Both the position numbers and the translations under genes were made by a program. This document shows, piece after piece, positions 4,486-53,058 of a stretch of 64,000 nucleotides of DNA; the stretch's first letter is position 1, and each line of letters begins with the position of its first letter. This stretch comes from Candidatus Woesearchaeota archaeon (lineage in GTDB: Archaea; Nanobdellota; Nanobdellia; Pacearchaeales; GW2011-AR1): NCBI GenBank assembly GCA_964468545.1, contig CAYXTT010000001.1, positions 1,894 through 65,893 of the forward strand, written 5' to 3'. The notes beneath the pieces are model-generated. The model was given only the letters and a program-made list of their open reading frames with translations, was not told the origin of the DNA and ran no database searches.

Positions 4486-5310
4486 CTACAAACTCCCCCA
4501 CTCTCTCATCCCAACAACCGAATCTCCAACAGCGTCGGGACTTTCACATATCAAAACAACATCTTTATCTAACCCAGACAAAAATTCCAACACCTTCTTC
4601 CATTCAGACAAAGGCGTCACCAAATGTTTCTTCTCGCCCTTATCTCCAAACTCAATCCCTGAAAAATGCACGTGCCAATTCTTCAACTTGAAAACCTCTT
4701 CAATTTTCTCAAACTCATAATTTTTATAACGAGCCAAAACATGCGCAATATCAATACAAACCCCGCAACCCGTCTCGCGAACCAATCGCCCAACCTCGTC
4801 AATCGAACCAAAAACATTCACCTTCCCCATAACCTCCGGACACAATTCAACATCCCATTTATTTTCCTTCACAACTTCCATCATCTCAACCACCCCTTCC
4901 TTAATCTTCTGAAAATCCGCTTCCATCCATTCTGAATTCTGACACCTGACACCTGACACCTTATTCAAATTCTTTGAGTTTGAATAAAATCCCGGATGAA
5001 AAACAACCCGCTTCGCCCCGAGCCACGACGCAACCTCGCAACATTTCAAAATCCGAGCCCTCGACATCTCAACCTTCTTCTCTTCCTTCGAATTCAAATT
5101 AATCCAATATGGCGCATGCACCGACAAATAAATCCCCAACTTTTTCGCAACCCGACCAATTCTCAAAGCATCCTCTTTCTTTTTAATATAAATCCCATAA
5201 GTAAACAAAACCTCCGCCGCCCGAAAACCCAACTTATGATACATCTCCAAATTCGCAACCGCATCACCAACCGACCCAATCCCCGTCGGACCAAATCTTA
5301 TATTAGACAT
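4486..5310 (-). CDS. nfo: Endonuclease IV (AP endonuclease, xylose-isomerase-like TIM barrel).
   Basis: Motifs HAPYWINL, HPGFY and IDIAHV. 274 aa. It carries an in-frame repeat insertion, listed separately. Confidence 0.8.
   Translation of the reverse strand: MSNIRFGPTGIGSVGDAVANLEMYHKLGFRAAEVLFTYGIYIKKKEDALRIGRVAKKLGIYLSVHAPYWINLNSKEEKKVEMSRARILKCCEVASWLGAKRVVFHPGFYSNSKNLNKVSGVRCQNSEWMEADFQKIKEGVVEMMEVVKENKWDVELCPEVMGKVNVFGSIDEVGRLVRETGCGVCIDIAHVLARYKNYEFEKIEEVFKLKNWHVHFSGIEFGDKGEKKHLVTPLSEWKKVLEFLSGLDKDVVLICESPDAVGDSVVGMREWGSL
4939..4987 (+). repeat. (GACACCT)x3 tandem heptamer followed by a 9-bp-stem hairpin (TTATTCAAA-ttctttgag-TTTGAATAA). It is inserted in-frame inside nfo.
   Basis: Read directly from the sequence. 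On the coding strand it translates as ...NSKNLNKVSGVRCQNSEW... Confidence 0.8.
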
Positions 5311-5351
5311 AATAATTAAATAATCATCAACAATTTAAACATTTCCTATAA

Positions 5352-6614
5352 TCACTCATATCTCATTAACGCATCCACCGGCTTCAACCTCGACGCTCTA
5401 TACGCCGGTATCGCTCCCGCAATCATTCCTATAAATATTGAAAGCAAAAACACCCCGATTATCAGCGTCGGACTAAAATAAGTAGAACTAAACGACAATC
5501 TCCCAAACGAACCACTCGCCAAACTTCCAATAAGACCCGCGCCAAAAACACCGAGGACAATTCCGCCAATCCCGCCAATCAATCCCAGCAAACCCGAACT
5601 AAACAAAAATATAACAAGTATATCCTTGTTCTGCGCACCAATCGCTTTCAAAATTCCAATCTCTCTCGTCTTCTCCATCACAGAAGTAAACATCGTGTTC
5701 GCTATACCAACCGCCCCGACAATTAACGAAATCGCCGCAATAGCCGCCAAAAACAACGCAATCGAATTAAGTGAAGAACTAACCGTCGCCTGAATTTCCG
5801 CAGGATTTGAAACACTAAAGTCGATATTCTTCGTCTGAAGAATCCCACGAGACAACATCAACTTCTGGGTTATCTCAGCAACCGTCTCATTCGTCAAATC
5901 CACATCTTTTATCTTCACAGAAATAGAATTAAACTTTTCATCTCCAACATTATCAATAACCTCTCGCGCCATCAAAATCGGCATGTAAATATTTGAATCA
6001 ACACTCCCACTCTGCTCCAGTACTCCGACAATCTTGAAAATTTTCCCCTCTATCGTAATCTGCCTATTTATTTGCATCCCATCAAAAACAGAATTCGCAA
6101 CACGATAACCAACAACAACCGAATTCGAATCTCCCTGCATCAAGTATCTCCCCGAACTCAAACCCGTCGTGATAAAATCTTTCCACACTTCCGCATCAAC
6201 TCCCTCAATATTCACCGTCGACGATTTACTCAAATAAGTCACATCTGCCCTGCCAGAAACCATCCCCATCACAAAATCAATATTCTGAATCCCTTTCAAA
6301 ACAATCACATCTTTCGCAGTAAGATTTTTTTGCTCCGACGAAGACGAAGAACTTCCAAAATCTCCGCCGCCGCCACGAATCTGAAACCCACCCCCGGAAC
6401 CCATCGCCCGCGAAGCCCCGGGACTAATCGTCAAAACATCCCCCCCTAAATTCCCTAAACTTTCCTGCAACTGCTGCTGCGCCCCCTGACTAACAGAAAC
6501 AATCGAAACAACCGCCGCAATTCCAATCACAATCCCGATAATCGTCAGATAACTTCTCAGTCTGCTATGTATCAACATATTAAGCGAAAGTTGAAACGCT
6601 TTTTTCGTTTTCAT
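5352..6614 (-). CDS. ABC transporter permease of the FtsX/MacB type.
   Basis: 420 aa. An N-terminal transmembrane segment, a large extracytoplasmic domain, then a C-terminal cluster of transmembrane helices typical of FtsX-domain permeases. Confidence 0.75.
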   Translation of the reverse strand: MKTKKAFQLSLNMLIHSRLRSYLTIIGIVIGIAAVVSIVSVSQGAQQQLQESLGNLGGDVLTISPGASRAMGSGGGFQIRGGGGDFGSSSSSSEQKNLTAKDVIVLKGIQNIDFVMGMVSGRADVTYLSKSSTVNIEGVDAEVWKDFITTGLSSGRYLMQGDSNSVVVGYRVANSVFDGMQINRQITIEGKIFKIVGVLEQSGSVDSNIYMPILMAREVIDNVGDEKFNSISVKIKDVDLTNETVAEITQKLMLSRGILQTKNIDFSVSNPAEIQATVSSSLNSIALFLAAIAAISLIVGAVGIANTMFTSVMEKTREIGILKAIGAQNKDILVIFLFSSGLLGLIGGIGGIVLGVFGAGLIGSLASGSFGRLSFSSTYFSPTLIIGVFLLSIFIGMIAGAIPAYRASRLKPVDALMRYE

Positions 6615-6616
6615 GG

Positions 6617-7621
6617 TTACTTCCTCTTCCTTTCAGCTAAAACCCAATCTGGAACTCCCTTAGAATTTTTCCCACCCTCAATCTTTTTCGACCCCGATTT
6701 CAATCCCAAAAATAATTTCTTCATCTTCCCGGGATATTTACTATGATACCAATATCCTCCTCCCGCAACCAAAACAACAACTATCCAAAACCAAACACTC
6801 TTGAAAATACTACTACTCTGTTGCGTCGTTGTAAAATTACCTCTTTGAAAATTTCCACCAATAACTTGCCCCGTTATATTTATTGGAGAAGCCGAAATAA
6901 ACTGAACATTTTTCACAACGCTCCTTCTTCCTCCAATGCTATCCGTATAATCTAACTGAACCTGCAAATCACTTCCCTGACTTCTCCCAACTTGCGTCAA
7001 ACTAAAACTAACAATAGTATAATCCCCAGAATCAAGATTCCCAACCATCTGCCCATTAGTTCCAGAAATTCTATAATTATCCTGCTCCGGAATTCTAACT
7101 ATCAAAGAATTCGCAGTATTCACGCCCGTATTCGCAATCGCAATCGAAACATCCGTCCCAGAAGATTCCTGCACAACTAAATCAAAATCCGTCTGCACAT
7201 TCGAAACTTCTATCGGAAAAGAACTAATAACCCCTGAATTTAATTTGCTATTCATATATTTTAATTTAAATTCATTTTCCCCCTCAACGGCATCCTTACT
7301 CACACGAATCTTATAATGCATGACAACCTCAAAAGAACTCGCGTCCTTATACTCTCTAACAGGATTTTCATTTTCATCGACGCTAAACGGAAAACTATCA
7401 ATCAATTCAAACTTCGCATAATCAACCGAATTCCCCAACGACGCCTTAACCCAAACATCAAAATATTCCCCGGGACTTACAGGATAAGGTTCGTACTTTA
7501 ACTGAGTTATCTGAGTACCATCATAATCATAATTATACGAATAATTCAAAACCTCCTCTGCGGAAATAATGCTCGTCAAAAAAACACACATCACTAAAAT
7601 CAAAATAAATCTACTTTTCAT
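6617..7621 (-). CDS. Secreted or membrane-anchored protein of the ABC transporter operon (substrate-binding or accessory role).
   Basis: N-terminal signal peptide MKSRFILILVMCVFLTSIISA and a C-terminal transmembrane segment. The stop overlaps the permease start and the start overlaps the ATPase stop. Confidence 0.45.
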   Translation of the reverse strand: MKSRFILILVMCVFLTSIISAEEVLNYSYNYDYDGTQITQLKYEPYPVSPGEYFDVWVKASLGNSVDYAKFELIDSFPFSVDENENPVREYKDASSFEVVMHYKIRVSKDAVEGENEFKLKYMNSKLNSGVISSFPIEVSNVQTDFDLVVQESSGTDVSIAIANTGVNTANSLIVRIPEQDNYRISGTNGQMVGNLDSGDYTIVSFSLTQVGRSQGSDLQVQLDYTDSIGGRRSVVKNVQFISASPINITGQVIGGNFQRGNFTTTQQSSSIFKSVWFWIVVVLVAGGGYWYHSKYPGKMKKLFLGLKSGSKKIEGGKNSKGVPDWVLAERKRK

Positions 7622-8325: not shown

Positions 8326-8346
8326 ATTCTCTCATCGGTTTCCTAT

Positions 8347-9488: not shown

Positions 9489-10220
9489 ATGCCAATATCA
9501 ACGGGAAGAATTATTTTCAAAAGCATTGGAAGAGAAAAATTAACCAGCCTGCTCGGACTAGGATTAGGAGCAGAATTTTTTTACTCGTTCATAATAATCG
9601 TCTGCAGTTTAATAATTTATTTCGGCACAAAAGAACTTTACGAATTAAGCTCACACAAAGGAATAAAATATTTCAGACAAGCATTTCTATTTTTCGCAAT
9701 CGCCTATTTCTTCAGAGGGTTCATAAAATTTATAGTTATTTACTTTGATATCAACGGAATACTAGAACTTTCTCCAATCACATTTGGAATCACAGGACTA
9801 GCAACTCAACTTTTATTTGTATACTTCAGCTCGATGGCAATATTTTATCTTCTTTATAGTGTAATGCAAAAATGGAATAACAATTCCCGCAAAATTTATT
9901 TATTACACTTTCTTGCCATAACTCTCGCTCTAATAAGCGTCTTGTCAAGAAACCCGCTAGTTTATCTGGGACTAAATCTTTTCCTTCTTGCCGTCGTCGT
10001 TTTCATTATTCGAATCTCTTATCAATATAAAAAGAACAGAAAAGGAAAACACCATCTTTACCTGACTTACATTCTTCTTTCTTTGTTCTGGGTACTTAAC
10101 ATCATAGACACTTTAATCCCAAAATTTTTCCAGGGCTTCCAATTATTTATCTACCTGGCATCAACATTAGTATTCTTGCTTGTTTTATACAGAGTTATAA
10201 AAAATACTGGGACTGATTAA
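9489..10220 (+). CDS. Multi-pass integral membrane protein, hypothetical.
   Basis: 243 aa with about seven hydrophobic segments. Confidence 0.5.
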   Translation: MPISTGRIIFKSIGREKLTSLLGLGLGAEFFYSFIIIVCSLIIYFGTKELYELSSHKGIKYFRQAFLFFAIAYFFRGFIKFIVIYFDINGILELSPITFGITGLATQLLFVYFSSMAIFYLLYSVMQKWNNNSRKIYLLHFLAITLALISVLSRNPLVYLGLNLFLLAVVVFIIRISYQYKKNRKGKHHLYLTYILLSLFWVLNIIDTLIPKFFQGFQLFIYLASTLVFLLVLYRVIKNTGTD

Positions 10221-12706: not shown

Positions 12707-13270
12707 CTAATCACCCAGCATCCGCGCCTCTCTAAACATCCCTAATGCCTTATACATCTTCAACAATTTTTCCCTAATCTCACTCTTTTCCATCTCATCC
12801 AAATTCATCTTAATCAACTTCTCATAAAATTTCACCGCCCCCAACCTCTTCCCACTCATCTCCAAATCTCTCGCCAAAACAAAATAAATATTTTTTCTCG
12901 CCAACTTTATTTTCGCCATTTCAACATTATTAGCTTCCCGCCCCGCCCGAATAAACATCTCCTCAGCGTCGTCAATCTTCCCAACTTTCGTAAACAACTC
13001 AGCCGCGCTCAAATAACTCTCGACCTTGTCCCGAAAAGAAATCTCAATCCCTGCCCTGTTCGCCATCGCCTTCGCCGCTTTCTCAAACATCTTCCTCTCT
13101 TTATATAACTCGCACAACTCCCCCCACAAAAATCTCTTAATCTCAAAATTAAACCCCGGCACTCGCACCGCCGACTCCAAATAAATAATCTTATTCAAAG
13201 CCGTATTCATCTCTTTCAACTTCTCCACAATCTCTTCAACCGTCCGCTCCCGCACTTGAATTCCCATCAC
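12707..13270 (-). CDS. Helical, TPR-like hypothetical protein.
   Basis: 187 aa with a helix-repeat character. A GTG-ATG start lies directly after a 36-nt promoter-like repeat. Confidence 0.45.
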   Translation of the reverse strand: MMGIQVRERTVEEIVEKLKEMNTALNKIIYLESAVRVPGFNFEIKRFLWGELCELYKERKMFEKAAKAMANRAGIEISFRDKVESYLSAAELFTKVGKIDDAEEMFIRAGREANNVEMAKIKLARKNIYFVLARDLEMSGKRLGAVKFYEKLIKMNLDEMEKSEIREKLLKMYKALGMFREARMLGD

Positions 13271-13300
13271 AAAAAAACGAAGAGAGAGTTTTTAAGAATT
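13264..13300 (-). promoter_or_regulatory. Copy 1 of a 36-nt leaderless-promoter-like repeat (AATTCTTAAAAACTCTCTCTTCGTTTTTTTGTG-ATG).
   Basis: A TATA-like CTTAAAAA sits about 25 nt upstream of the start codon. It is near-identical to copy 2. Confidence 0.5.
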
Positions 13301-13721
13301 ATTGCGATAGAGTTTTTTCCAAGCAATCATAAGTCCCAAAAAAACGATAACCACTTTTCTCTCGTGACGCTCCACGCCCCTTGGCAACATAACATCCTAC
13401 TGTCTCAGCTCCAACTTCCCTGACTCTCTTCTCTGCCTCTTCCATTAACTGAACAGCAAGCCCCCTGCCAAGCCCTTTATTTCTATAATCCTCACTAACA
13501 GCTAATCTAAAAATCGTCGCCATCCACGGGTCCAAAACCACAGCCACACTCCCGACAATTCTCTCATCATCCTCAGCCAAAATAATAGACCCAGGAGAAA
13601 ATTCAATCTTCTGCCGAAGCAAACTTCTCTTGTCAGAACTAGGGATATAAAGACCGACAGAAGTCCACAACCCTATAACCCCATCATAATCCGAATCAGT
13701 ATAACCCCTAATCACAACCAT
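13299..13721 (-). CDS. GNAT-family N-acetyltransferase.
   Basis: The acetyl-CoA-binding motif RNKGLGRGLAVQLMEEAE and the GNAT fold pattern. Confidence 0.75.
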   Translation of the reverse strand: MVVIRGYTDSDYDGVIGLWTSVGLYIPSSDKRSLLRQKIEFSPGSIILAEDDERIVGSVAVVLDPWMATIFRLAVSEDYRNKGLGRGLAVQLMEEAEKRVREVGAETVGCYVAKGRGASREKSGYRFFGTYDCLEKTLSQ

Positions 13722-13758
13722 TACAAAAAAACAAAGAGAGACTTTTTAAGAATTTAGA
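13722..13758 (-). promoter_or_regulatory. Copy 2 of the 36-nt promoter-like repeat, immediately upstream of the GNAT ATG.
   Basis: AATTCTTAAAAAGTCTCTCTTTGTTTTTTTGTA-ATG. It differs from copy 1 at 2-3 positions. Confidence 0.5.
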
Positions 13759-17791: not shown

Positions 17792-18409
17792 TTATCTTGC
17801 TGCATCAGCCGCCTTTTCCGAATCATTCCTCTTCGAAATCGCATAACTCTCGCCAGAATTCGCCGCCGCCAGCATCAACTCCTTCGCCAACGCCTCGACA
17901 ATCGTCGCCTTTTTATTAAACGCCTTGTCATAAGCCCCATTTACAAAATATCTCAAAACTAAATTCAATCTCCGTCGCGGAGAAACATCAACCGCCTGCG
18001 GATACTTCGCCCCCCCATATTCAATCGATGTAACCTCGTCCCGTGGCGCCGCATTCTCAATCGCCTTCACAAAAACCTTCAACGGATTCTCCCCCGTGCT
18101 CTTCTCTATAATCTTAAACGCATCAATCACAATCATCGTGCACCTCGTCTGCTTCCCACTAATCCACCCCGTAATAATCCTGTGCTTCTTCCCTCGACTT
18201 CCCGGCACTTGCAACAAATTAATCAATCTCTCGACGACATTAACCTTCGCCCTCGTCGGGTCCCACTTAATCCTCCCATGCGATTTCAACAACAACTTCG
18301 GCGACAAATTCACAACTTTCTTCAATCCCGGATCCTCAACTCGAACCTCTGACGCATCAAACAATCCAAAAACTTTCATCTCTACCATCAAAAAACCGAC
18401 CTCCCACAC
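17792..18409 (-). CDS. rps7: Ribosomal protein S7.
   Basis: KVFGLFDASEVRVEDPGLKKV... The true start is probably the internal MKVFG (about 18379). Confidence 0.9.
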   Translation of the reverse strand: MWEVGFLMVEMKVFGLFDASEVRVEDPGLKKVVNLSPKLLLKSHGRIKWDPTRAKVNVVERLINLLQVPGSRGKKHRIITGWISGKQTRCTMIVIDAFKIIEKSTGENPLKVFVKAIENAAPRDEVTSIEYGGAKYPQAVDVSPRRRLNLVLRYFVNGAYDKAFNKKATIVEALAKELMLAAANSGESYAISKRNDSEKAADAAR

Positions 18410-18593
18410 ACCATAGAATTCATTTTATTAGACTGTCCATATAGACAAATTTCTCGCTGACCCTTCATTTTATCTTCCTCTCTAATAATTGTCCTATTAA
18501 ATGGAGCACCGACGATATACTCAACACTCACAAGCGTATCATACCTTCCATTAAAACCATCCTTATTATCTCTTAACCATCTCAACTCCCATA

Positions 18594-18730
18594 AAAAATC
18601 CGTGTTAGTCCGTGTTAGTCTATGTGCTATTTTTTCTCCAGTTACACAAGTCACACCAAGCAACCCAAGTCGTGCGACAAGCGACAAGCGACAAGCGACA
18701 AGCGCAATGAAATTTCTCTGAAATTTCATC
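18594..18730 (+). repeat. Composite repeat element A in the S12-S7 spacer. It has a CGTGTTAGTC decamer block, an AGTTACACAAG segment, (GCGACAA)x4 and the hairpin ATGAAATTTC-tct-GAAATTTCAT.
   Basis: Tandem repeats and the inverted repeat are read directly. It shares its architecture and partial sequence with element B at 23433-23565. Confidence 0.8.
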
Positions 18731-19148
18731 GTCTCCCCTTCTCAATCTTCCCCATCCACAATCTATCCAATGGCTGGTCATTCACTTTAATTACTTGAAA
18801 TCTAATCCCAGACAAATCCCCTTTCGTCCGTCCCTGCTTTCCACCAATCCTCTCAACTACAACCTCGTCGTGCTCATCGATAAATGTCTGCGCCAAGTTC
18901 CCAGGAATAAACGCCGTAACTTCTTTCCCGTTCTTAATCAACTGCACCTTGCAACATTTCCTCATAGCTGAGTTCGGCTGCTTCGCCTCTTTCTGAACTT
19001 TCTTTATAACAATCCCCTTCGCCTGCGACGCTCGCCCAATCGGGTCAAATTTCAAACTAATCCCAAGCCGTTTCTTTTTATGCGGCAACTTATTATCACG
19101 AAACTTTTTCCTATCCTTCTTCAACTTCCGCCCGCTCATTATTCCCAT
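18726..19148 (-). CDS. rps12: Ribosomal protein S12.
   Basis: GIVIKKVQKEAKQPNSAMRKCCKVQLIKNGKEVTAFIPG. Confidence 0.95.
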   Translation of the reverse strand: MGIMSGRKLKKDRKKFRDNKLPHKKKRLGISLKFDPIGRASQAKGIVIKKVQKEAKQPNSAMRKCCKVQLIKNGKEVTAFIPGNLAQTFIDEHDEVVVERIGGKQGRTKGDLSGIRFQVIKVNDQPLDRLWMGKIEKGRR

Positions 19149-19655: not shown

Positions 19656-19675
19656 TATAATCCCCTCCTAAAAAA

Positions 19676-19740
19676 TCCGCGTTCATCCACACTCCTTTTT
19701 CTTTAGCAATACAAAAAGTTACACACAAATAACAATCCAT
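19676..19740 (+). repeat. Degenerate copy of the decamer element (AAAAATCCGCGTTCATCCACACTCC...AGTTACACACAA) in the nusA-L30e spacer.
   Basis: About 70% similar to the heads of elements A and B. Confidence 0.4.
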
Positions 19741-19979
19741 CATTTCCTAACAGAAAAAACTTCACATTCAAAATCAAGATTTAATTCCTTGGCAACGTCT
19801 TCCTTCAACTTCAAAACATCAAATTCAATCTTCGCAGCCTCCAATTTCTCGACAATTTCATCTCGAGTATCTTTGCAAATAAAAACATTTTTCAACTTTT
19901 TCCCGCCCTTCAACGCCTGCCTCAACCCAAAAAAAACTTTCCCCCTTTCCATCGCTTCCGCCAAATCTTTTACACTCAT
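19740..19979 (-). CDS. rpl30e: Ribosomal protein L30e (L7Ae/L30e fold).
   Basis: GKVFFGLRQALKGGKKLKNVFIC. Conserved position downstream of rpoA. Its ATGA start overlaps the rpoA stop. Confidence 0.7.
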   Translation of the reverse strand: MSVKDLAEAMERGKVFFGLRQALKGGKKLKNVFICKDTRDEIVEKLEAAKIEFDVLKLKEDVAKELNLDFECEVFSVRK

Positions 19980-22900
19980 TTCTTTTTCTCCTTAACTTTA
20001 TTAGCCAAACTTCCTGTCACCTTAACCAACAACCCCGGCAATCCCGTCCCAACCGGAACCGGCTGATTCAAAATAATATTCTCAATCACCGACGCTAATT
20101 TATCTTTCTTCCCGGTTTTCGTCGCTTGAACAAATTGCTTGACTGGTGTTTCAAAAGATGCCCTCGCCAAAATCGAACTCTTGTCAGAAATAATTCCCAT
20201 TCTCGTAATCCCTTTCACTATCCCCGAACTAACCATCGTATCCGCAACCAACATCGCATGTTTACCATCAACCGCCAACCCCTGCGAACTAATTATTTTA
20301 TTAATTTCATTAATTATCAATTGTCGCGCCGCCTCAATCCCAAGAACACTCGCAACCTCATGAATATCATTACTCAAAACCTTATTGCCATCAACTCCCT
20401 TAAACGCCAGCACATCTTTAAGATTAGAACCCGCCGTCAAAATCACAAAATCTTTCCCCCTCTTGACAACCAAAACCTGAGAAATCTTTTTAACTCCAGT
20501 TAAAATAACCTCCTTAATTTTCTCTTTTGTTTTATAAATAGTTTTAAAATCTTCCTTCGTCATATCCAACACAAACCCATCAGACAATCTTTTCATACTA
20601 TAACCCTTTATCTTCAAAACCTCCACAACTTTTTCCAATCCAATATGCACCGACCTCAAAGCCTTCTCGTCAATATTAACTTTAATCTTCTTCGTCCCAA
20701 AATCAATACCAATGCCAGAAATAACCTCCTTCAACTTGACCTCTTTGATTTTCTCCGCAACAACCCTCGCATCCTTCTCATTATTGTGTTCTTTATCCAA
20801 CCAAATTTCCATCGACGGTGTTTTCGGCAATTTCCTCGCATCTAAAATTTCAATAATACGTGGCAATCCCTGCGTAACCTGCATCTCAGCAACACCAGCA
20901 GAATGGAAAACATTCAAAACCATTTGCGTCGATGCCTCGCCAAAACTCTGAGCAGTTACAACACCAATCGCTTCACCCGGAGCAACTTTCTTATTATTAT
21001 GCCTCTCTGAAATGTCAACTCCATCAACTCCATACACGAACTGAACAATATTATTAGAAGCATCCCTCACCGTCCCATCATAAGCCATAACTAAATCTTG
21101 CAACGCATTCGCCAACCTTCTATACAAATAACCCGACTTCGGCGTCCTCAACGCAACATCCATTAACCCATCTCTGCCAGTCATCGCACCAAAGAAAAAT
21201 TCATCAGGTCTAAACCCATCCATCAACGAACTATAAACAAACCCGCGCGCCCTCGGCGACAAATCATCCTTCCTGAAAAACGACAATGTTCTACCGGTAT
21301 ACCCAAAATCGATTCTCCTTCCATGCAAAACCTGTTGCCCAACCGAACACGCAATCTGTGTAATATTCAACATACTACCAGATGCCCCAGAACCAATCAT
21401 CTTACTCGCCAAATTATCCTTAGGAAAACCTTCCTTAACCGCGTCGCCGATCTCCGTTCTCGTTTCATTCAACACCTGCAAAATTTTTGTCTCTCTTGTT
21501 TCTTCCGCACTCTTTCCCGGCAACAAATCCAAACTTTTATTATAATAATTTTCTATAATCTCTTTCGTCTTCAACTCAGCAGATTCTATAATCTTCTCCG
21601 TTTTCTTCTTCACGGCGTCGGGAACATTCAAATCATCAGCCGAAAGCGTAAACCCCGTCCTCGACAAAAACACCGTCCCCAACATAAAAACCTGTCTCAA
21701 TAATTCCATAGTTTCATCTCGACCCAATTTTATATCCGCCGCCCTCAAAGCATCTCCCCGCCCAGTTTTAAAGCTCGTCGCATTAAACTTACCATTTTTA
21801 GAAGATATACCATGCGCAATCCCCACAACTTCCTTCGGCACAATCTTCTCAAAAATACTTATTCCCGAATTCATCTTATTTAAACCGCCAACCTTGATAC
21901 CCGATTCATACAATAACTGCGTCGCATCCTCTTTATTTAATTCCGACTCACTCAAAATAAAATTCCCAGAAACAGCATCCTTAACACACCCAATAAAATT
22001 CATATTATTTTTAGGAGAAAACAAATTAGCATTTACATTCAACAACAACTTCGCTTCAGCCCTCGCCTCCTCAGTTTGCGGCGCATGAATATTCATCTCG
22101 TCGCCATCAAAATCCGCGCCATAAGGACCACAAGTCGCCGGATGAATTCTAAAAGTTCTCCCGGGAATTATCTTGACAAAATGCGCCATCAACGAAGCCC
22201 GATGCAAAGAAGGATGCCTGTTAAACAAAACCACATCTCCGTCAACAAGATGCCTCTCAACAATATATCCCGTCTCCAGTTCTTCAACCAATTCCTCTCT
22301 CAAATCATCAGTAATCCTCTTCCTCTTCCCGTCAGACCGAATAATATAATTCGCGGCAGGATAACTCGTCTTAGCAACCAACGCCTTCATTCTCTTCATG
22401 TTCACACTCGTAACCCTCTCCGCAACCGTCAAAATTTTCGCAACTTCAATCGGTATACCAACCTCATTCAACTTCATATTAAGATCTGGCGAAATAACCG
22501 TCCTCGCAGAATAATTAACTCTTTTCCCTGCCAAGTTTTTCCTAATCCGACCTTCCTTCCCCTTAATCCTCTCGGTAATCGTTTTCAATGGCTGCCCACT
22601 CCTATGCCTCGCCGGCGGAATCTTCGCAATCGAATTATCAAAAAAAGTCGTAACATGATACTGCAACAAATCCCACAAGTCCTCGATAATAACTTCCGGC
22701 GCACCCGCATTCAAATTCTCCCACAACCTCTGATTCGACCTAATAATGTCCGACAACTTATGAGTCAAATCATCCTCTGACCTCTCTCCCGACTCCAAAG
22801 TAATCGACGGTCGCACAGTTACCGACGGCACCAACAACAAAGTCAAAATCGTACTCTCCGGTCTCAATGTCGCAGCATTAATCCCAAGAATTTTCAAATC

Positions 22901-23416: not shown

Positions 23417-23432
23417 CTTACCGCCCCCAAAC

Positions 23433-26813: not shown

Positions 26814-26832
26814 TTTTCACCTCTTTAAAAAA

Positions 26833-32578: not shown

Positions 32579-32680
32579 TCACAAGCAAACATCATTCTAT
32601 CCTTGAACTCCGCAAACTTCCCCTCGTTCCATTGCGCAGTCGGTCGCAAATACCCGACAACTCGACTCCACACTTCACAT

Positions 32681-34897
32681 TTAGTCCTCTCCATCTTCTC
32701 CTCCGAAATTTAATTTAAGTTTCATCGGAACCAAAACTTCATGCCCAATTTTTGACCCCGAAACAATACCATCCTCCTCGATAAAAATCGACGACCCAAC
32801 GCTCTCATCAATAATAATCTCCTCCGCCATTTCCTTCTTGCTGCTCTCAACCTCAATCGCAACAACCTCCCGTTCAGCGTCGCACTTCGGACAATACTCA
32901 TGCTCACCCGCAAGATAACCATGAATCGGACAAATCGAAAATGTCGGCGTAATCGTAAAATATGGCAAATGATAATTATTAGAAATCTTCCTCACCATAT
33001 TCTTAACCGCGTCCTTCGTCATCCTCTCACCAACAAAAGTATGAAACACTGTCCCGCCGGTATACTTACATTGAAATTCATCCTGCAAATCCAACGCCTC
33101 AAAAACATCGTCGGTAAAATTCACCGGCAAATGCGACGAATTCGTGTAATACGGCTTAGCCCCTTTCTGAACCGCCACCTCGTTTGCAACAATAATCCTC
33201 CCAAATCTTTTCTTATCCATCCTCGCAAAACGATAAGTCGCACCCTCACCCGGCGTCGCTTCCAAATTATAAATATTCCCCGTCTCCTCCTGGAACTCCG
33301 CCAACTTATCCCTCATAAAATCCAAAATCTTCAAAGCAAATTCCCGCCCTCTCTCTGTCGCAATGCTTTCCCCCGGCATAAAATTCAAAATCGCCTCATT
33401 CATCCCAAGCAACCCAATCGTCGCAAAATGATTTTTCCAATACTGCCCAAATCTCTGGTATACCTGCCTCAAATAAAACTTACTATAAGGATACAACCCC
33501 ACCTTCGTGAAATTCTCAATCGCCTTCCTCTTAATTTCAAGACTCTCTTTCGTTAACTCCATCAATCTATCCAGTCGCCCGATAAAATCCTCCTCGCTCG
33601 TCGACACATATCCCAACCTCGCCATATTAATCGTTACAACTCCAATCGAACCAGTCTGTGGATTCGACCCAAACAAACCGCCACCACGTTTTTTCAAAGT
33701 AGTATTATCAATTCTCAACCGGCAACACATCGACCTCGCGTCCTCCGGCTTCATATCAGAATTAACAAAATTCGAAAAATACGGTATACCATACTTCGCC
33801 GTCATCTCCCAAATCAAATCATACTCCGGATTATCCCAGTCAAAATCTTTCGTAATATTATAAGTCGGAATCGGGAAAGTAAAAACTTGTCCCGACGCAT
33901 CACCATCCATCATACACTCCGCAAACGCCCGATTCAACATATCCATCTCTGGCTTAAATTCCTTGTATGTCTCAATCTGCGGCTGACCACCAATAATCAC
34001 ATGTTCGTCCATCATATAATCTGGCACTTTCAAATCCATTGTAATATTTGTAAAAGGGGTTTGAAATCCTGTTCTCGTCGGCACCGCCATATTATAACAA
34101 AAACTCTGAATCGCTTTTTTTACTTGCTTGTAATCCAGATTCTCATATCTAATAAATGGAGCCAATAATGTATCAAAATTCGAAAACGCCTGCGCCCCCG
34201 CACTCTCTCCCTGCAAAGTATAAAAAAAATTCACTACCTGCCCCAATGCCGCATTAAAATGTTTTGGTGGCCTACACTCAACTTTCCCTTTCACGCCCCT
34301 AAATCCAACCATCAACAAATCTTTCAAATCCCACCCAACACAATATGCCCCAAGACAATCTAAATCATGAACATGAATATCTCCGGCCTCATGTGCTTTC
34401 CTAATCGCCTCTGGATAAATCCGCCTCATCCAATAATTAGAAATAATCTTCCTCTTAATATACTCATTCAACCCCTGCAAACTATAACCCATATTTGAAT
34501 TCTCCTTTACCATCCAATCGTCTAACCCAATATAATCCTCGACCGCCTCAATTGTATCAAACAATCCCTTAACCTTCCTCAACTCATCATGACTCTGCCT
34601 ATAAAGAATATACGCCTTCGCAACCTTCGCGTGCCCCTCTTCAATCAAAATCTTCTCAACCAAATCCTGAACTTCCTCGACCTCTGGAATCCCAAACTCT
34701 CCGTGAATCTCATTAAGTTTCTCGATGACCATATCTGCCAACCACACTGGTCTCTCTCTATCTTCTCCTCCAACCGCCCGCGCCGCTTTCCAAATCGCCT
34801 CCGCAATCTTCTCTTTCTGAAAAAACACAACACTCCCATCTCTCTTCCTAATTTTCTTTACCATCTTCCACCTCGCCATATTTTTTATCTTCTTCAA
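32681..34897 (-). CDS. nrdD: Anaerobic ribonucleoside-triphosphate reductase, class III. The real start is probably MVKKIRKRDG at about 34864.
   Basis: The N-terminal ATP-cone VKKIRKRDGSVVFFQKEKI and NrdD core motifs (RTGFQTPFTNITMDL). The C-terminus has a CPIHGY...CPKC Zn ribbon and Gly-radical region, then an acidic tail. Confidence 0.9.
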   Translation of the reverse strand: MKKIKNMARWKMVKKIRKRDGSVVFFQKEKIAEAIWKAARAVGGEDRERPVWLADMVIEKLNEIHGEFGIPEVEEVQDLVEKILIEEGHAKVAKAYILYRQSHDELRKVKGLFDTIEAVEDYIGLDDWMVKENSNMGYSLQGLNEYIKRKIISNYWMRRIYPEAIRKAHEAGDIHVHDLDCLGAYCVGWDLKDLLMVGFRGVKGKVECRPPKHFNAALGQVVNFFYTLQGESAGAQAFSNFDTLLAPFIRYENLDYKQVKKAIQSFCYNMAVPTRTGFQTPFTNITMDLKVPDYMMDEHVIIGGQPQIETYKEFKPEMDMLNRAFAECMMDGDASGQVFTFPIPTYNITKDFDWDNPEYDLIWEMTAKYGIPYFSNFVNSDMKPEDARSMCCRLRIDNTTLKKRGGGLFGSNPQTGSIGVVTINMARLGYVSTSEEDFIGRLDRLMELTKESLEIKRKAIENFTKVGLYPYSKFYLRQVYQRFGQYWKNHFATIGLLGMNEAILNFMPGESIATERGREFALKILDFMRDKLAEFQEETGNIYNLEATPGEGATYRFARMDKKRFGRIIVANEVAVQKGAKPYYTNSSHLPVNFTDDVFEALDLQDEFQCKYTGGTVFHTFVGERMTKDAVKNMVRKISNNYHLPYFTITPTFSICPIHGYLAGEHEYCPKCDAEREVVAIEVESSKKEMAEEIIIDESVGSSIFIEEDGIVSGSKIGHEVLVPMKLKLNFGGEDGED

Positions 34898-35240: not shown

Positions 35241-35277
35241 TTTATTTTTCCCTATCCCAAACCGCCAAGTCCCGATA

Positions 35278-35305
35278 CACCGCCAACCCGAAGAAACTCA
35301 AACTC
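35278..35305 (-). terminator. Hairpin GAAACTCAA-actcat-TTGAGTTTC immediately downstream of the nrdR stop.
   Basis: A 9-bp inverted repeat. An adjacent 18-nt direct repeat (AGTCCCGATACACCGCC) is also found inside the nrdR 3' end. Confidence 0.4.
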
Positions 35306-35744
35306 ATTTGAGTTTCTTTATCTCCTCCTTAAAATCATCAATATCCCCAAAGTCCCGATACACCGCCGCAAACCGAATATACGCAACCTTGTCAATCTTC
35401 TTCAGCTTATTCATAACCATCTCGCCAATCTGCGAACTTTTGATATCCTTCCCCTTCGCAACCCGATAAACATTCGCCTCAATATCATCAACGACCCCAT
35501 CTATCTCCTCACTCGTAAACGGCCGCTTCTGCAAATTCTTGTCAACCCCAACAAACAACTTCTCCCGCAAAAACTTTTCCCGACGCCCATCCTTCTTAAT
35601 AACATTCAAATCCAACTCGACTCGCTCATACGTCGTAAACCGCTTCCCACATTTCAAACACTCCCTTCTCCGACGAGTCACAGAATCACAATCACGCTTA
35701 TCCGTCACCTTCGTCTCAACAGCAGTACAATATGGACACCTCAT
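35304..35744 (-). CDS. nrdR: NrdR transcriptional repressor (Zn ribbon plus ATP-cone).
   Basis: MRCPYCTAVETKVTDKR...CLKCGKRFTTYE and the ATP-cone VIKKDGRREKF. Confidence 0.85.
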   Translation of the reverse strand: MRCPYCTAVETKVTDKRDCDSVTRRRRECLKCGKRFTTYERVELDLNVIKKDGRREKFLREKLFVGVDKNLQKRPFTSEEIDGVVDDIEANVYRVAKGKDIKSSQIGEMVMNKLKKIDKVAYIRFAAVYRDFGDIDDFKEEIKKLK

Positions 35745-39881: not shown

Positions 39882-40697
39882 CTACAAACACTCAAAAATA
39901 TTACACGCACTACAAACACTCCCACTCGCCGGCTCCCCACACTTCTCACACTTCCCCAACTCTCTTTCATCAACACTCAAATTCAAATTCAAAAATTCTT
40001 CAACAATTTTCAACTTCTCAGCGTCGCTAATCACCTTCATCCAATCCCGAGTCTCAACCCGATAAGTCCCAAACGCACACGGACACTTATTATACAAAAT
40101 ATCAAACTTCTTCATCTTAGCAAACTTCCTAATCTCCGACTCCGGCACAAAAAACAACGGCTTAACTCGTTGCACAAATCCACTGACACCTGACACCTGA
40201 CACCTGACACCTGTTTTTGGCGCACTCCTCGCGCCCAAAAACAAATTGCCTTTCAAGAAATTCATCAAAACATTCTGACATTCATCGTCGAGATTATGCC
40301 CCGTCACCAACTTATCAGCCCCGAGCTTCCGAGCCCACCGATTCAAAACCCACCGCTTCACCGTCCCACAAACCGAACACCCAGTCAACCCTTTCTTCTT
40401 TTTCAAAACCGCCTTAATAAAACAAATTCCCTGCCCCAACTCCGCCTTCAAATCAACAATCGTCAACCGAACCCCAATCTCCCCACAAAATTTCTCCATA
40501 TTCTTATTATGAACCCTAGACCACTCGCCAAGTCCCAAGTCAATCATCAACCCAGAAACATCGTAACCCAACTTCTTCAAAATATACAACACCGACGTCG
40601 AATCCTTCCCACCCGACAACGCCACAACAACTTTGTCCGACTTTTCCAACAACTCATACTTCCCAATCGTCTCCACAACTTTCTTTTCAACATCCAT
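39882..40697 (-). CDS. PP-loop ATPase of the TtcA/TtuA/NcsA tRNA-thiolation family. It carries an in-frame repeat insertion.
   Basis: PP-loop SGGKDS, then CSVCG and a C-terminal CEKCG...CSAC. The insertion encodes LFLGARSAPKTGVRCQVSGVSG. Confidence 0.7.
   Translation of the reverse strand: MDVEKKVVETIGKYELLEKSDKVVVALSGGKDSTSVLYILKKLGYDVSGLMIDLGLGEWSRVHNKNMEKFCGEIGVRLTIVDLKAELGQGICFIKAVLKKKKGLTGCSVCGTVKRWVLNRWARKLGADKLVTGHNLDDECQNVLMNFLKGNLFLGARSAPKTGVRCQVSGVSGFVQRVKPLFFVPESEIRKFAKMKKFDILYNKCPCAFGTYRVETRDWMKVISDAEKLKIVEEFLNLNLSVDERELGKCEKCGEPASGSVCSACNIFECL
40183..40243 (+). repeat. (GACACCT)x4 tandem heptamer plus the imperfect hairpin TGTTTTTGGCGC-actcct-CGCGCCCAAAAACA, in-frame inside the PP-loop ATPase gene.
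   Basis: Seen in the sequence. It uses the same heptamer as the nfo insertion at 4939-4960. Confidence 0.8.
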
Positions 40698-41740: not shown

Positions 41741-42718
41741 CTAAATATTTTTATTAACTTGCCCCTCTATCCAAGCATAAGTTTTTTCCATCCCTTTTCT
41801 AAGTGGATAATTTGGCGACCACCCGAGTTTTTCTTTAATCAAAGAATTCTCAGAATTCCTCCCCCTAACACCCAACGGCCCATCAATATGTTTAAGCGAA
41901 ATTTCCTTCCCCGCAATATCTGCCGCCATCAAAGCTAAATCATTTATACTAACCATCTCCTCAGAACCAATATTAACAGGCCCAACAAAATCCGAATCCA
42001 TCAACCTTCTTACACCCTCCAAACATTCATCAATATACAAAAACGACCTCGTCTGCTTACCATCCCCCCAAACCTCAATTTCTCCTCCCTCACTCGGCAA
42101 ATAAGCAACCTTCCTACACATCGCAGCCGGCGCTTTTTCGCGTCCACCATCATAAGTCCCCTCGGACCCAAAAATATTATGAAACCTCGCAATCCTAACA
42201 GGAACACCTCTATTCCTCATCATCGCCAAATAAACCCTCTCACTAAAAAGTTTCTCAAACCCATAATCACTATCAGGATTAGCCGGATAAGCCATCTCTT
42301 CCCTGAGCCCAATATTAGCAGGATCTCCCTGAATCTCCTGCGGATAAACACAAGCCGACGACGAATAAAACAATTTTCCAAACTTATCACTTAAACTAGA
42401 AAAATTTAAATTAATCTGTCCAGAATTATGCATTATATCAAAATCATGTTCCCTTGTAAAAACAAATCCTGCGCCTCCCATATCCGCCGCCAACTGATAA
42501 ACTTCATCAACTCCTCCCTCTAACGCACGACGACAATTTGCCTTATAACGCAAATCAGCAACAATAAACTCATCTGCACGAGTATGAGAAAACTCAGACT
42601 TCTTCAAATCAACTCCCCGAACAAAATACTTTTCATCCTTAAGTCGATTAACAAGATGACTCCCAATAAAACCCCCAGCCCCACAAACAAGCGCACTTTT
42701 TACCATAAGATAAAACAC
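41741..42718 (-). CDS. NAD-dependent epimerase/dehydratase of the extended SDR family (UDP-sugar 4-epimerase or decarboxylase type).
   Basis: Rossmann motif CGAGGFIGSHL and catalytic YSSSACVYP...K. Confidence 0.85.
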   Translation of the reverse strand: MFYLMVKSALVCGAGGFIGSHLVNRLKDEKYFVRGVDLKKSEFSHTRADEFIVADLRYKANCRRALEGGVDEVYQLAADMGGAGFVFTREHDFDIMHNSGQINLNFSSLSDKFGKLFYSSSACVYPQEIQGDPANIGLREEMAYPANPDSDYGFEKLFSERVYLAMMRNRGVPVRIARFHNIFGSEGTYDGGREKAPAAMCRKVAYLPSEGGEIEVWGDGKQTRSFLYIDECLEGVRRLMDSDFVGPVNIGSEEMVSINDLALMAADIAGKEISLKHIDGPLGVRGRNSENSLIKEKLGWSPNYPLRKGMEKTYAWIEGQVNKNI

Positions 42719-42745
42719 AAAATAGGATTTATAAAAATTTATATC

Positions 42746-45101: not shown

Positions 45102-46099
45102 TCACCCTCCTCCTTTGTTCCACAAACACAACCCTCCCCCGCCAAAATAAAACTCGCAATCAAACTCTCAAGTTGAATAAATTCGTCCGCACCCTCGACC
45201 AAACGAAACTCCGCCTCACCCGTCTTCTCAGTCAACCTCACCTTCAACGCATTATCAATCGGCAAATTCCAAACCTCCTTCTGAATCGCCTTAATCACAT
45301 CCTGCCCCGAAATCGATTCCTTCAACATAATATCCAACAACTTATCCCGCGAACTCACAAAATCCCCCGACAAAGCATAATCCAAAACAACCTTGATATC
45401 CGATGGCTTCGCCTTCGAAACAATCGTATTCACCAAATCCGGAGTAATGTTCGGCGAAATCGAAGCAGTCGCCTGTAACAAATTAATCACCCGACGACAA
45501 TCCCCCTCGCTCGCTTCATACAACGCATCAAACGCACCAGCCGAAATCGACAGCCCCTCGCTCTCCGCAATCAAATCAATCCTCTTCTTAATGTCCTTCT
45601 TCTCCAACAACTGAAACCTAAACACAACCGCCCTCGACTGAATCGGATCCAAAATCTTCGACGAATAATTACAACTCATTACAAACCGGCAAGTCGAAGT
45701 AAAATTCTCCATCGTCCTCCTCAAAGCTTGCTGCGCCTCTCTCGTCAACGCATCCGCCTCATCCAAAAAAATAACCTTAAACGGCACATTCCCCAATGCC
45801 TTCGTCCTCGCGAAATCCTTAACCTTCTGCCGCACAACATCAATCCCCCGCTCGTCCGACGCATTCAACTCCAAATAATTCTCACGCCAACTCTCACCAA
45901 AAAGTGTCTTCACAATTATCAAAGCCAAAGTCGACTTCCCCGTCCCCGCCGGCCCCGCAAAAAGCAAATGAGGAATATTCATAGAATTCACCAACGCCCG
46001 CACCCTCTTGATAATCTCCTCCTGCCCAACCATGTCATCAAAACGCCGCGGCCGATATTTCTCCGTCCACACCTCAGACCCATAATGCTCCATCAACAA
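45098..46099 (-). CDS. rfcS: Replication factor C small subunit.
   Basis: EKYRPRRFDDMVGQ, GPAGTGKST, DEADAL and the SRC motif region. Confidence 0.9.
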   Translation of the reverse strand: MLMEHYGSEVWTEKYRPRRFDDMVGQEEIIKRVRALVNSMNIPHLLFAGPAGTGKSTLALIIVKTLFGESWRENYLELNASDERGIDVVRQKVKDFARTKALGNVPFKVIFLDEADALTREAQQALRRTMENFTSTCRFVMSCNYSSKILDPIQSRAVVFRFQLLEKKDIKKRIDLIAESEGLSISAGAFDALYEASEGDCRRVINLLQATASISPNITPDLVNTIVSKAKPSDIKVVLDYALSGDFVSSRDKLLDIMLKESISGQDVIKAIQKEVWNLPIDNALKVRLTEKTGEAEFRLVEGADEFIQLESLIASFILAGEGCVCGTKEEGE

Positions 46100-46144
46100 A
46101 AACCTAAAACCAACTTTATAAGGATTATTGTAATCAAAACGAAA

Positions 46145-52522: not shown

Positions 52523-52828
52523 CTACCTAATACTTTTCAAATCTACAATTTCTCCATCAGTCTCACCCAAATACTTAGCACTATAAACTACCTCAACACA
52601 TATAGAACTTATAATCCCAGGAACACTCTGCGCATACTTATTCGATTGATATGTAGCACAAAAACTAAAACTCATAATGTCATGCCCATTAAATGCCCCC
52701 ATTTCACAAGCCTTCATTTCCCCCCTCTCTCTTAGCTGTTCTTCGGAAAAACCATGAGTAACCATCTCATAACACAAGCCATTAATATAAAACGGACATC
52801 GTTCATCTGAAGCCATAAAACAATACAA
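52523..52828 (-). CDS. Small Cys-containing hypothetical protein.
   Basis: About 95 aa from MASDERCPFYINGLC. Confidence 0.3.
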   Translation of the reverse strand: MYCFMASDERCPFYINGLCYEMVTHGFSEEQLRERGEMKACEMGAFNGHDIMSFSFCATYQSNKYAQSVPGIISSICVEVVYSAKYLGETDGEIVDLKSIR

Positions 52829-52866
52829 ATACTCTCTTTAAAAGAATTATTGTAATAAAGAATCCA

Positions 52867-52937
52867 AGCAGACACCAGGATTTGCACCTGGGATCAGCGG
52901 GTTGCAGCCGCTTGCCTTACTACTTGGCTATGCCTGC
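52867..52937 (-). tRNA. tRNA-Cys (anticodon GCA).
   Basis: The reverse complement has acceptor GCAGGCA/TGTCTGC, anticodon stem AGCGG/CCGCT with loop CTGCAAC, and T-arm CCAGG-TGCAAAT-CCTGG. Confidence 0.7.
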
Positions 52938-53028
52938 ATACAAGATTTACAAATCAATAGTTTTTAAGATTAATTGCACCTGGGATTAGTATGATTGTAG
53001 AAAAAATTTCGCTTCAAAAAAAATCCGT

Positions 53029-53058
53029 GTTAGTCTGTGTTAGTCCGTGTGCTATTTC
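53029..53058 (+). repeat. Decamer element D (AAAATCCGTGTTAGTCTGTGTTAGTCCGTGTGCTATTT) in the tRNA-Cys/tRNA-Arg spacer.
   Basis: Same family as 18594, 23433 and 32041. A partial tRNA-Cys T-arm copy (TTGCACCTGGGAT) lies at 52971-52988. Confidence 0.8.

Follow-up and report, generated by a model that had tools for sequence, protein, structure and literature searches.

Two kinds of short repeated element were found in a 64,000-nt stretch of a Candidatus Woesearchaeota archaeon (hereafter the window; GenBank assembly GCA_964468545.1, contig CAYXTT010000001.1, positions 1,894 to 65,893). Six are hairpin + heptamer elements, in which a hairpin adjoins a short tandem array of a 7-nt unit, and four are decamer modules built on a 10-nt unit; both kinds occur in frame in housekeeping genes as well as between genes. 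The elements are a genuine feature of a sub-clade of DPANN archaea and have apparently gone undescribed. The explanation that we favor, tentatively and at somewhat less than an even chance, is that template-switch errors of replication or repair were filtered by selection for translation and were partly spread among loci. A sequence-only reading of the window had assigned one architecture to nine loci. All of the loci that it listed were found where it had placed them, but two different elements had been merged, which are combined at the S12|S7 and rpoB|rpoA junctions. Loci fetched from other genomes and contigs are denoted below by L and a number.

Hairpin and heptamer elements

Six period-7 arrays with 4.3–4.6 copies were detected in the window, located in nfo, in ttuA, at the first of two sites in nrdG, and at the ends of rpoH, rpoB, and S12. 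Five of them (4939, 18674, 23510, 26833, and 40183) contained perfect arrays of at least three copies, and four were exactly 31 nt long (4.4 copies). The fourth unit of the nfo array was degenerate, and the nrdG array (32405–32436) had 4.6 copies at 92% identity. By comparison, the window held no perfect array of at least three copies at period 5 or at periods 8–15, and one at period 6.

The association with hairpins was close. In a scan for stems of at least 9 with at most one mismatch and loops of 3–7 nt, 19 hairpins were found in the window, five of which touched a heptamer array at a gap of 0 or −1. Under a stricter scan (loops of 3–6 nt, 15 hairpins), a random position had a hairpin end no more than 6 nt away at a frequency of 0.0016, and four of the arrays had one. 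The hairpin of nrdG site 1 was weak (5–7 bp). On the coding (minus) strand, the hairpin lies 5′ of the array. An ATGAAA...TTTCAT core is common to several hairpins because these straddle the ATGA stop/start overlaps at gene ends. The earlier claim that the sequence differs from copy to copy was borne out for the hairpins, which are locus specific. The heptamer units, by contrast, were not arbitrary sequences but fell into families that recur far above chance, and the decamer module behaved like a conventional dispersed repeat.

The three intragenic elements, which like all those described here are read on the minus strand, encode short peptides. The nfo insertion (4932–4987) consists of a hairpin, TTATTCAAACTC-AAA-GAATTTGAATAA (4961–4987), and an array, (GTGTCAG)x3.3 plus one degenerate unit (4932–4961), together encoding NLNKVSGVRCQNSEW. 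In ttuA (40183–40240), the hairpin TTTTGGGCGC-GAGGAGT-GCGCCAAAAA (40214–40240) is followed by CAG(GTGTCAG)x4 (40183–40213), which encodes TGVRCQVSGVS. At nrdG site 1 (32405–32453), the weak hairpin TCAAC-TCC-GTTGA precedes (CAATTAG)2(CAATTCG)2CAG, and the encoded peptide is AQLAISNSQFA.

The other three elements stand at gene ends. At the end of S12 (18674–18731), the hairpin CGATGAAATTTC-AGA-GAAATTTCATTG includes the TGA stop codon of S12 and the ATG of a bridging open reading frame (ORF) and is followed by (CTTGTCG)x4.4. The hairpin at the end of rpoB (23510–23565), CGAATGAAAT-CGGAA-ATTTCATTCG, likewise contains a TGA stop and an ATG and precedes (CATTCGG)x4.4, whose unit is similar to the 3′ arm of this hairpin. 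At the end of rpoH (26806–26891), the hairpin ATATGAAAAGATC-TTT-GATTTTTTCATAT (26863–26891) and (CTGGTCG)x4.4 (26833–26863) are accompanied by a T6 run and the rpoB Shine-Dalgarno site, and the whole element lies inside a 27-residue ORF.

A related layout was observed at the end of the NrdR gene (35257–35318, minus strand), where a perfect 12-bp hairpin with the TGA stop in its loop is followed by two copies of a ~16-nt unit (CGGGTTGGCGGT / CGGGACTTGGCGGT) and then by a mazG-like gene. This structure probably belongs, in degenerate form, to the hairpin-plus-array class.

The decamer module

On the coding strand, the module reads AATAGCACAC(GGACTAACAC)2GGATTTT over ~40 nt, is usually preceded by TTGG..CAACTT, and contains a three-unit decamer tract, (CACGGACTAA)3. 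The decamer block had four matches in the window with at most three mismatches, compared with 0.00 expected in shuffles. Upstream of a small ORF and S7 (18593–18673), a conserved ~50-nt spacer (TTGG..TGTAACTGGAG) is followed by the module AAAATAGCACATAGACTAACACGGACTAACACGGATTTTTT. Between rpoB and rpoA (23433–23473), the variant AATAATGGTACACGGACTAACATGGACGAACACGGATTTT has a TAA-to-GAA change that leaves the ORF open. At nrdG site 2 (32039–32103), the module lies in frame with an upstream TTGGACAACTTGA motif, and the segment encodes FGQLDKELNLAHGLTRTNTDF. The fourth copy (53016–53057) follows tRNA-Arg(TCT), in whose 3′ trailer it lies, and precedes tRNA-Cys; it carries a T8 run and has the same position in the relative L016.

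At the composite loci S12|S7 and rpoB|rpoA, the hairpin comes first in order, followed by the array, a stretch of about 50 nt, and the module, and then by a Shine-Dalgarno site and a start codon. The same order was found at S14|S8 on another contig, which belongs to the organism itself or a close relative. Two degenerate copies had been proposed at 19676 and 29221. The former is real (19670–19726, minus strand, GTGTAACT...TGTGGATGAACGCGGATTTTTT) and immediately precedes the start of the NusA-like KH gene and its Shine-Dalgarno site, whereas the latter is only a partial 5′ fragment. In related metagenome-assembled genomes (MAGs), the module was base-identical at orthologous and nonorthologous loci. 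A metagenome scan with the 30-nt module returned two further contigs only, both from the same organism or a near relative.

Two functional ideas about the module were examined and set aside. A portable archaeal promoter was rejected on inspection as a general explanation, as the spacing from the A/T-rich box to the block varies and tRNA-Cys has a TATA-like box of its own. Pairing of the heptamer array with the decamer block inside a composite was rejected because the two are not complementary.

Reading frames and bridging ORFs

The copies between genes, which the sequence-only reading had placed outside reading frames, were located inside predicted small ORFs that bridge the neighboring genes. 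These ORFs comprise 27 residues at rpoH|rpoB (26806–26889, minus strand), 49 residues at rpoB|rpoA (23413–23562, minus strand, with an ATGA overlap at each end), and 113 residues at S12|S7 (18388–18729, minus strand), of which the first ~55 codons are element-coded (..LVACRLSLVA..AHRLTRTNTDF..). The S14|S8 junction has a 64-residue bridging ORF, and the relative L023 has a 62-residue counterpart after S12. Most bridging ORFs overlap both neighbors through shared stop/start codons, and all heptamer arrays found in the sub-clade lie inside ORFs. Because about 7.2% of random codons would be stops, as calculated from strand composition, such openness is unlikely to arise by chance, the probabilities being 0.13 for rpoH|rpoB, 0.025 for rpoB|rpoA, 2e-4 for S12|S7, and 0.008 for S14|S8.

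Substitutions that remove stop codons were also observed. In units 3 and 4 of the nrdG heptamer array, TCG stands in place of a stop-forming TAG, and TAA is changed to GAA in the modules of two bridging ORFs, the one between rpoB and rpoA and the one at the RFC junction of L050, which are exactly the copies read in that frame. The absence of stops from the inserts in the host frame, together with these substitutions, argues that the inserts are translated and not spliced out, and an archaeal bulge-helix-bulge intron is disfavored on the same grounds. A phase-variable contingency locus was ruled out, since the copy number is equal in all assemblies and the frame is always open.

Insertion status and turnover among relatives

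As had been proposed from the window alone, the in-frame segments of nfo, ttuA, and nrdG were found by alignment to be lineage-specific insertions that are missing from more distant orthologues. They are not carried by orthologues as conserved protein sequence: basal orthologues are short, and lineages differ. The homologue sets comprised several hundred TtuA and several thousand NrdG proteins. Nfo has 15 extra residues that are missing from 13 homologues; the insert consists of the 3′ arm of the hairpin and the array, and the 5′ arm aligns with the ancestral FY(G/S)(K/N). In the basal state of TtuA, about 5 residues separate ..P.TG from GF.QR.KPLFF, and many lineages have unrelated inserts of up to about 60 residues at this site. 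NrdG has two insertion sites, and basal orthologues are short at both. At site 2, basal orthologues read DFG-(Y)EFRTT, and many lineages have TR(T/M)N(T)DEH-type peptides, which are the translated decamer module, sometimes present twice; the DNA of two distant lineages agrees with this. AlphaFold confidence (predicted local distance difference test, pLDDT) was below 50 exactly at the array-coded residues (TtuA 166–171, NrdG 41–54 and 173–179). The inserts of TtuA and NrdG map to low-confidence loops in the predicted models.

Turnover was evident among close relatives. In the window, L050, and L145, the ttuA site carries (GTGTCAG)4.4. At this site, L049 has (TGGGAGAGGA)2.9 and a second hairpin, L051 has (GTCGCAG)5.3 after older, degenerate units, L144 has (TCGGAGG)4 but no hairpin, and L143 has no array. 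The rpoH|rpoB junction is empty in L146, and in L050 it holds a hairpin and an array that differ from those of the window. At the end of S12, the window has a 7-mer in 4.4 copies, and L023 has a different hairpin and a 19-mer in 4 copies at the equivalent place. None of these arrays was present in L143, a 20.8-kb syntenic locus of a relative. In the orthologue alignments, the Nfo, TtuA, and NrdG sites are clade-wide hypervariable insertion hot spots. For the hairpin + heptamer class, in which one orthologous site has four different arrays in four relatives, a generative process is a better account than the copying and pasting of a single mobile sequence; the decamer module behaves as a dispersed repeat.

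The hairpin arms stayed complementary as they changed. Of 13 pairs, 6 differed on both sides, and the covariation score reached 0.326 compared with 0.166 in shuffles, 1 of 500 of which attained the observed score.

A junction duplication of another kind was seen at rpoH|rpoB of L143 (20380–20445), where a 59-nt spacer starts with a duplicated rpoB start (ATGGCTGAAGTAA).

Copy number and a proposed mechanism

We propose that, at a replication stall or break, the nascent strand would fold back and copy itself, by which an inverted repeat would be made or perfected. The 5′ arm of the hairpin would have been there already, either as coding sequence or as the end of a gene including its stop codon, and the 3′ arm would be new. 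Beside the hairpin, slipped realignment on a 3-nt microhomology would duplicate a short seed head to tail. In a near-wholly coding genome with ATGA-coupled operon genes, only open-frame events would be kept; since the unit length is not a multiple of 3, three units would have to be gained together, which would take a heptamer from 1.4 to 4.4 copies. Stop codons created by the insert would be mutated away afterward, and between-gene inserts would be kept as small bridging ORFs. Some products, namely the decamer module and a few heptamer families, would spread to other loci and be homogenized by ectopic copying, thereby behaving as selfish dispersed repeats. Both the template switching and the copying between loci are what we infer from the patterns described here.

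Candidates for local seeds were found at two sites. CATTCGG matches the end of the hairpin arm, CATTCG-CGG, at the end of rpoB, and TCGGAGG adjoins a flanking CGGGAGG at the ttuA site of L144. The arms remain complementary through two-sided changes, as correction by template switching would give.

The copy number was nearly constant. Of the 14 heptamer arrays found in the sub-clade, 10 have 4.3–4.6 copies. An octamer array inside a bridging ORF has 4.6, decamer modules have three units (about 30 nt; one copy has four), and about 4 copies were counted in two of the three 19-mer arrays. When 21 nt are subtracted from the nrdG array, the orthologue length is obtained within one residue. The constant 4.4 copies equal 1.4 + 3, the smallest frame-preserving expansion of a 7-mer, and a selection filter would be the cause. 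A constant tract length (about 31 nt, as in spacer-like integration) was rejected as the explanation, because arrays of other periods span 29–111 nt and the copy number stays near 3–6.

In L146, a distant Pacearchaeota relative, a noncoding heptamer array (ATTAGAA/ATTAGAG) with 18.9 copies was found at 9660–9792, at the end of a cupin gene toward nrdG. Its ATTAGAA and ATTAGAG variants occupy separate blocks, as expected from stepwise expansion.

Several observations weigh against the template-switch explanation. With regard to copy number, the third 19-mer array has 5.9 copies in a 278-codon ORF of L023 and does not fit 1 + 3k. The net length change of ttuA relative to the basal state is +4 residues, which is not a multiple of 7, and noncoding 14- and 16-mers also have 3–5 copies although no frame filter acts on them. 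No variation in copy number was seen among consensus contigs of several samples, and expansion by three units in one step is an assumption. With regard to sequence, the (GTGTCAG)x4 of ttuA is identical in three species despite a third-codon identity of 0.77, and the chance of 31/31 identity in this array under neutrality is about 3e-4 per species pair. Heptamer unit pairs within one mismatch numbered 11 compared with about 2 expected (P about 0.001), and identical pairs across loci or genomes numbered 4 compared with 0.15 expected. The recurrent units are GTGTCAG, a GTCGC(A/T)(G/T) network, and AGTTGGR, and their reappearance at unrelated loci and in other genomes speaks against seeds of purely local origin. 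Finally, the CACGGA core at 10-nt spacing is kept in the modules of distant lineages, and GTCCGTGnnn decamer arrays are found in MAGs of many bacterial phyla. Inter-locus copying followed by homogenization could explain what is seen in the archaea.

Similar arrays in bacteria and viruses

The bacterial GTCCGTGnnn arrays were found as genome-contig matches (L012, L014, L025, L031, L033, L038, L041–L044, and others) in Hydrogenedentota, Acidobacteriota, Verrucomicrobiota (including Akkermansia), Planctomycetota, Lentisphaerota, Nitrospirota, and Prevotella. At gene ends, they often make up the two arms of a long intergenic hairpin, and in L025 the array overlaps a gene end reading GLTRTNTDEQGLTRTDTD before its stop. 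These bacterial arrays had no Rfam family, and no paper containing the sequence was found. Literature searches by decamer or heptamer string likewise found no paper, and keyword searches on DPANN repeats gave nothing relevant.

(GTGTCAG)x3–4 was present in 40 IMG/VR viral contigs (L052–L091). Such an array is often one arm of a long hairpin that lies upstream of a gene start and has an imperfect (CTGACAC)-like sequence as its other arm, and the surrounding DNA contains other short tandem arrays. In the controls, a permuted heptamer gave 8 viral matches and another window unit gave 9, indicating that heptamer arrays are common generally and that the specialness of GTGTCAG is weak. Matches to (CTGGTCG)n mostly belonged to one long variable-number repeat in prophage-like IMG/VR contigs of about 48% GC (L093–L122), with 8–55 units between the conserved flanks ..cttgatttactg / ctggtctggcagcataaaatc... 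This repeat looks unrelated to the archaeal arrays despite the shared CTGGTCG unit.

Alternative explanations

Non-autonomous selfish mini-elements, resembling Rickettsia palindromic elements (RPEs) or miniature inverted-repeat transposable elements (MITEs), would be inserted at new sites, either through ectopic recombination or with the help of an enzyme whose gene lies elsewhere, and would be tolerated only in frame. This reading is unlikely; it fits the decamer module best. A core of at least 30 nt with the upstream TTGG-CAACTT is present at 4–6 window loci, at S14|S8, and at five or more loci in two related MAGs. The module also stands in frame in nrdG of many lineages, sometimes twice, and identical heptamer units occur at unrelated loci. 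In the window, the nrdG copy has GATTTT(G/A)G direct repeats on both sides. However, consistent target-site duplications or terminal inverted repeats were not found, and no transposase, integrase, or reverse transcriptase was present among the annotated ORFs of the 64-kb window. The module is not palindromic, and folding of its regions was not more stable than that of shuffled sequence (z −0.7 to +1.1). The hairpins differ between loci even where the heptamer is shared, so the hairpin and array do not form one mobile unit. A MITE or transposon remnant was rejected, because inspection of the flanks showed no consistent target-site duplication and because heptamers are found on just one side of each hairpin. 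A clustered regularly interspaced short palindromic repeat (CRISPR) array was ruled out, since each site is a single hairpin with a tandem tract and hairpins are not repeated.

It is also possible, though unlikely, that the elements are functional cis elements, serving either as binding sites for a multimeric DNA- or RNA-binding protein (operators, segregation, attenuation or pausing ahead of the T-run), made up of the palindrome with its roughly four direct repeats and of the three CACGGA boxes, or as RNA signals that tune coupling or decay at operon junctions. Binding to contiguous 7-bp heptads is known from ribbon-helix-helix proteins, omega of pSM19035 being one, but the heptamer units differ between loci, and one protein could not read all of them. 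Outside the arrays, moreover, single copies of the units were neither over-represented nor strand-skewed, and a single-copy motif function like that of Chi, KOPS, or uptake sequences was rejected for this reason. Conservation speaks for a function, as the nucleotide sequence of arrays and modules is shared by different species whose flanks have diverged, and the CACGGA core is conserved while the 4-nt spacer varies, placing three boxes one helical turn apart. On the other hand, elements also lie within essential coding regions, are replaced wholesale in close relatives, and are missing from the 20.8-kb syntenic locus L143. The module stands right before a start codon with its Shine-Dalgarno site (S7 region, rpoA, nusA, S8, and RFC) or after a tRNA with a T8 run, and its T-run is shortened or lost within nrdG. 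The period-10 CpG array agrees with the RNA polymerase pause consensus G-10 Y-1 G+1, and the gene-end hairpins are kept through compensatory change. RNA folding of the composites and modules, however, gave no significant structure beyond the local hairpins, and an Rfam covariance-model search of the window and 18 bacterial loci returned tRNAs only.

A broader variant, which we consider distinctly doubtful, is that the heptad arrays and the period-10 CACGGA arrays form a sequence-specific system, with units installed by a templated polymerase or kept as binding or pausing sites, and belong to the same undescribed class as the GTCCGTGnnn and GTGTCAG arrays of bacteria and phages.

Highly improbable is a dedicated enzyme (a telomerase-like or other reverse transcriptase, a primase-polymerase, or an integrase) that adds limited heptamer or decamer tracts beside a hairpin or cruciform. 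Such templated addition would suit a small repertoire of units recurring across loci, genomes, and even domains, and arrays that are perfect and that, in any phase of the unit, start at a gap of 0 to −1 from the hairpin. Yet neither the window nor the fetched loci contained such an enzyme or template, and some units are visibly derived from their flanks. The breadth of recurrence is also reduced by the 8–9 viral matches of the control units and by the single unrelated repeat behind most (CTGGTCG)n matches.

An assembly, adapter, or chimera artifact has next to no probability: two Logan contigs end at elements, but the S12-S7, rpoB-rpoA, and rpoH-rpoB segments are base-for-base identical in independent contigs from several ENA and JGI samples, the exact TtuA protein is present on 5 further contigs and the exact NrdG on 2, frames are preserved, and related MAGs share elements at orthologous sites although the assembly pipelines differ (ENA, JGI, NCBI), so that the artifacts against which the sequence-only reading had cautioned do not account for the elements.

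Comparison with known systems

The sequence-only reading had known of no archaeal equivalent, but one exists: the closest described case is that of the Borgs, extrachromosomal elements of Methanoperedens, with their perfect tandem repeats. These head-to-tail repeats occur between genes and, nondisruptively, within ORFs (Schoelmerich et al. 2023, PMC9879509). Their genic units have lengths divisible by three and are virtually unique, the repeat regions span at least 50 nt, and the copy number varies within populations; structure-triggered slippage was proposed as the mechanism, and disordered protein segments are created (PMC9879509). The elements described here are similar in having perfect repeats of at least three units, both genic and between genes, with partial repeats flanking the arrays, and in giving rise to disordered stretches of protein. 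In both systems, turnover between close relatives is rapid and related genomes lack the repeats. They differ in that the genic units of the window clade are 7, 8, 10, and 19 nt long and the frame is kept by the addition of three units, in that the arrays are only about 30 nt and units recur between loci, and in that most arrays abut a hairpin and the host is a DPANN chromosome. Archaeal genomes are generally not enriched in short tandem repeats (PMC12699852).

The comparison with RPEs made in the sequence-only reading is apt for the in-frame position in tolerant loops and fails for the module, which is not palindromic. RPEs, reportedly described by Ogata et al. in 2000, are said to lie in frame in housekeeping protein genes at fold-tolerant positions and also between genes, and to be regarded as selfish. 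They are 100–150 bp, palindromic, and homologous over their whole length. Short dispersed in-frame inserts at structurally tolerant sites are found here too, and the module copies are recognizably homologous. However, the decamer module is about 40–65 nt and unstructured, and the hairpin + heptamer elements share an architecture and not a sequence.

Quasipalindrome template switching, in the models of Ripley and Lovett, produces rare mutations in Escherichia coli and yeast reporter assays; it is not known to be fixed throughout a genome in association with tandem arrays. Contingency loci of bacterial pathogens are slippage-made repeats, heptanucleotide ones included, whose variable copy number switches surface or restriction genes. 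The elements described here resemble them as short perfect repeats inside coding regions but have a copy number fixed across samples, a frame that is always open, and housekeeping genes as hosts. Repetitive extragenic palindromic sequences, bacterial interspersed mosaic elements, and DNA uptake sequences are single motifs that occur roughly once per kb, often in both orientations, and uptake sequences use tolerant coding frames. The likeness to these lies in short dispersed motifs that are uniform across a genome and species; the present motifs, in contrast, are tandem, gene-oriented, and present about once per 10 kb, and their single copies are not enriched. Fold-back inverted insertions at breaks are a further point of likeness: short templated inverted duplications of about 5–34 bp form beside the templating sequence, and the arms become complementary in a single event (PMC11724301).

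Genomic context of the window

The window has a strong and constant GC skew of about −0.45, and the minus strand carries nearly all of its genes. Pfam matches gave a gene order of archaeal type: rpoH, rpoB, a single-ORF Rpb1-like rpoA, KH (NusA-like), S12, S7, EF-2, and EF-1alpha. A nucleotide-metabolism cluster (nrdD, nrdG, thyX-tmk, SHMT, dcd, and dut), RFC subunits, nfo, and a TtuA-type tRNA thiolase were also present, and ATGA overlaps between neighboring operon genes were common. The closest named homologues in protein searches with TtuA and NrdG were from Nanoarchaeota and Pacearchaeota MAGs. The host is a small, symbiotic-type DPANN archaeon like the Nanoarchaeota and Pacearchaeota.

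RNA polymerase subunit A (19976–23434, minus strand) is encoded by one ORF of about 1146–1152 residues with Rpb1 domains 1–5, and relatives have the same arrangement; in most archaea, the subunit is divided into A′ and A″ genes. The main nrdD ORF (32681–34897) closes with a ~60-residue acidic tail and a stop codon, and the glycyl-radical C-terminal motif of NrdD (..SRVVGYLRP..WNEGK..) is located in a separate 42-residue ORF (32566–32694, minus strand) that overlaps the nrdD end and the nrdG start. A split nrdD, with a 39–42-residue ORF that has an NRDD Pfam match, was found in seven relatives, including the array-free one. The separate motif ORF could reflect a split gene or a recoding-dependent gene. 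In L145 (5673–10199), nrdD has 1508 residues and contains an intein with a LAGLIDADG endonuclease, which the nrdD of the window lacks.

A promoter-like motif, AAT(T/C)(C/T)TTA(A/T)AAA, was found 22–24 nt before ATGG at 13264–13300, 13718–13754, 42703–42739, and 46090–46126 (minus-strand sense). Its recurrence suggests that many transcripts may be leaderless or have short leaders, with operon-internal genes being led instead by Shine-Dalgarno sites.

Biological implications

In practical terms, the inserts inflate alignments used for DPANN phylogeny, yield spurious small "genes," and break short-read assemblies. The results also suggest that small bridging ORFs can keep translational coupling after an insertion. 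At the hot spots, namely the TtuA loop, the two NrdG loops, and the operon junctions, sequence gain, loss, and replacement can be traced over hundreds of uncultured lineages. If one of the rival explanations is true, DPANN archaea would have a dispersed regulatory or templated repeat system, the first described in this group, and bacteria and phages would carry its relatives. If the template-switch explanation is true, a mutational process would be writing new peptide loops into core enzymes and into the ribosomal and RNA polymerase operons of an archaeon with a reduced genome, and the arithmetic of three units at a time would reveal selection for uninterrupted translation.

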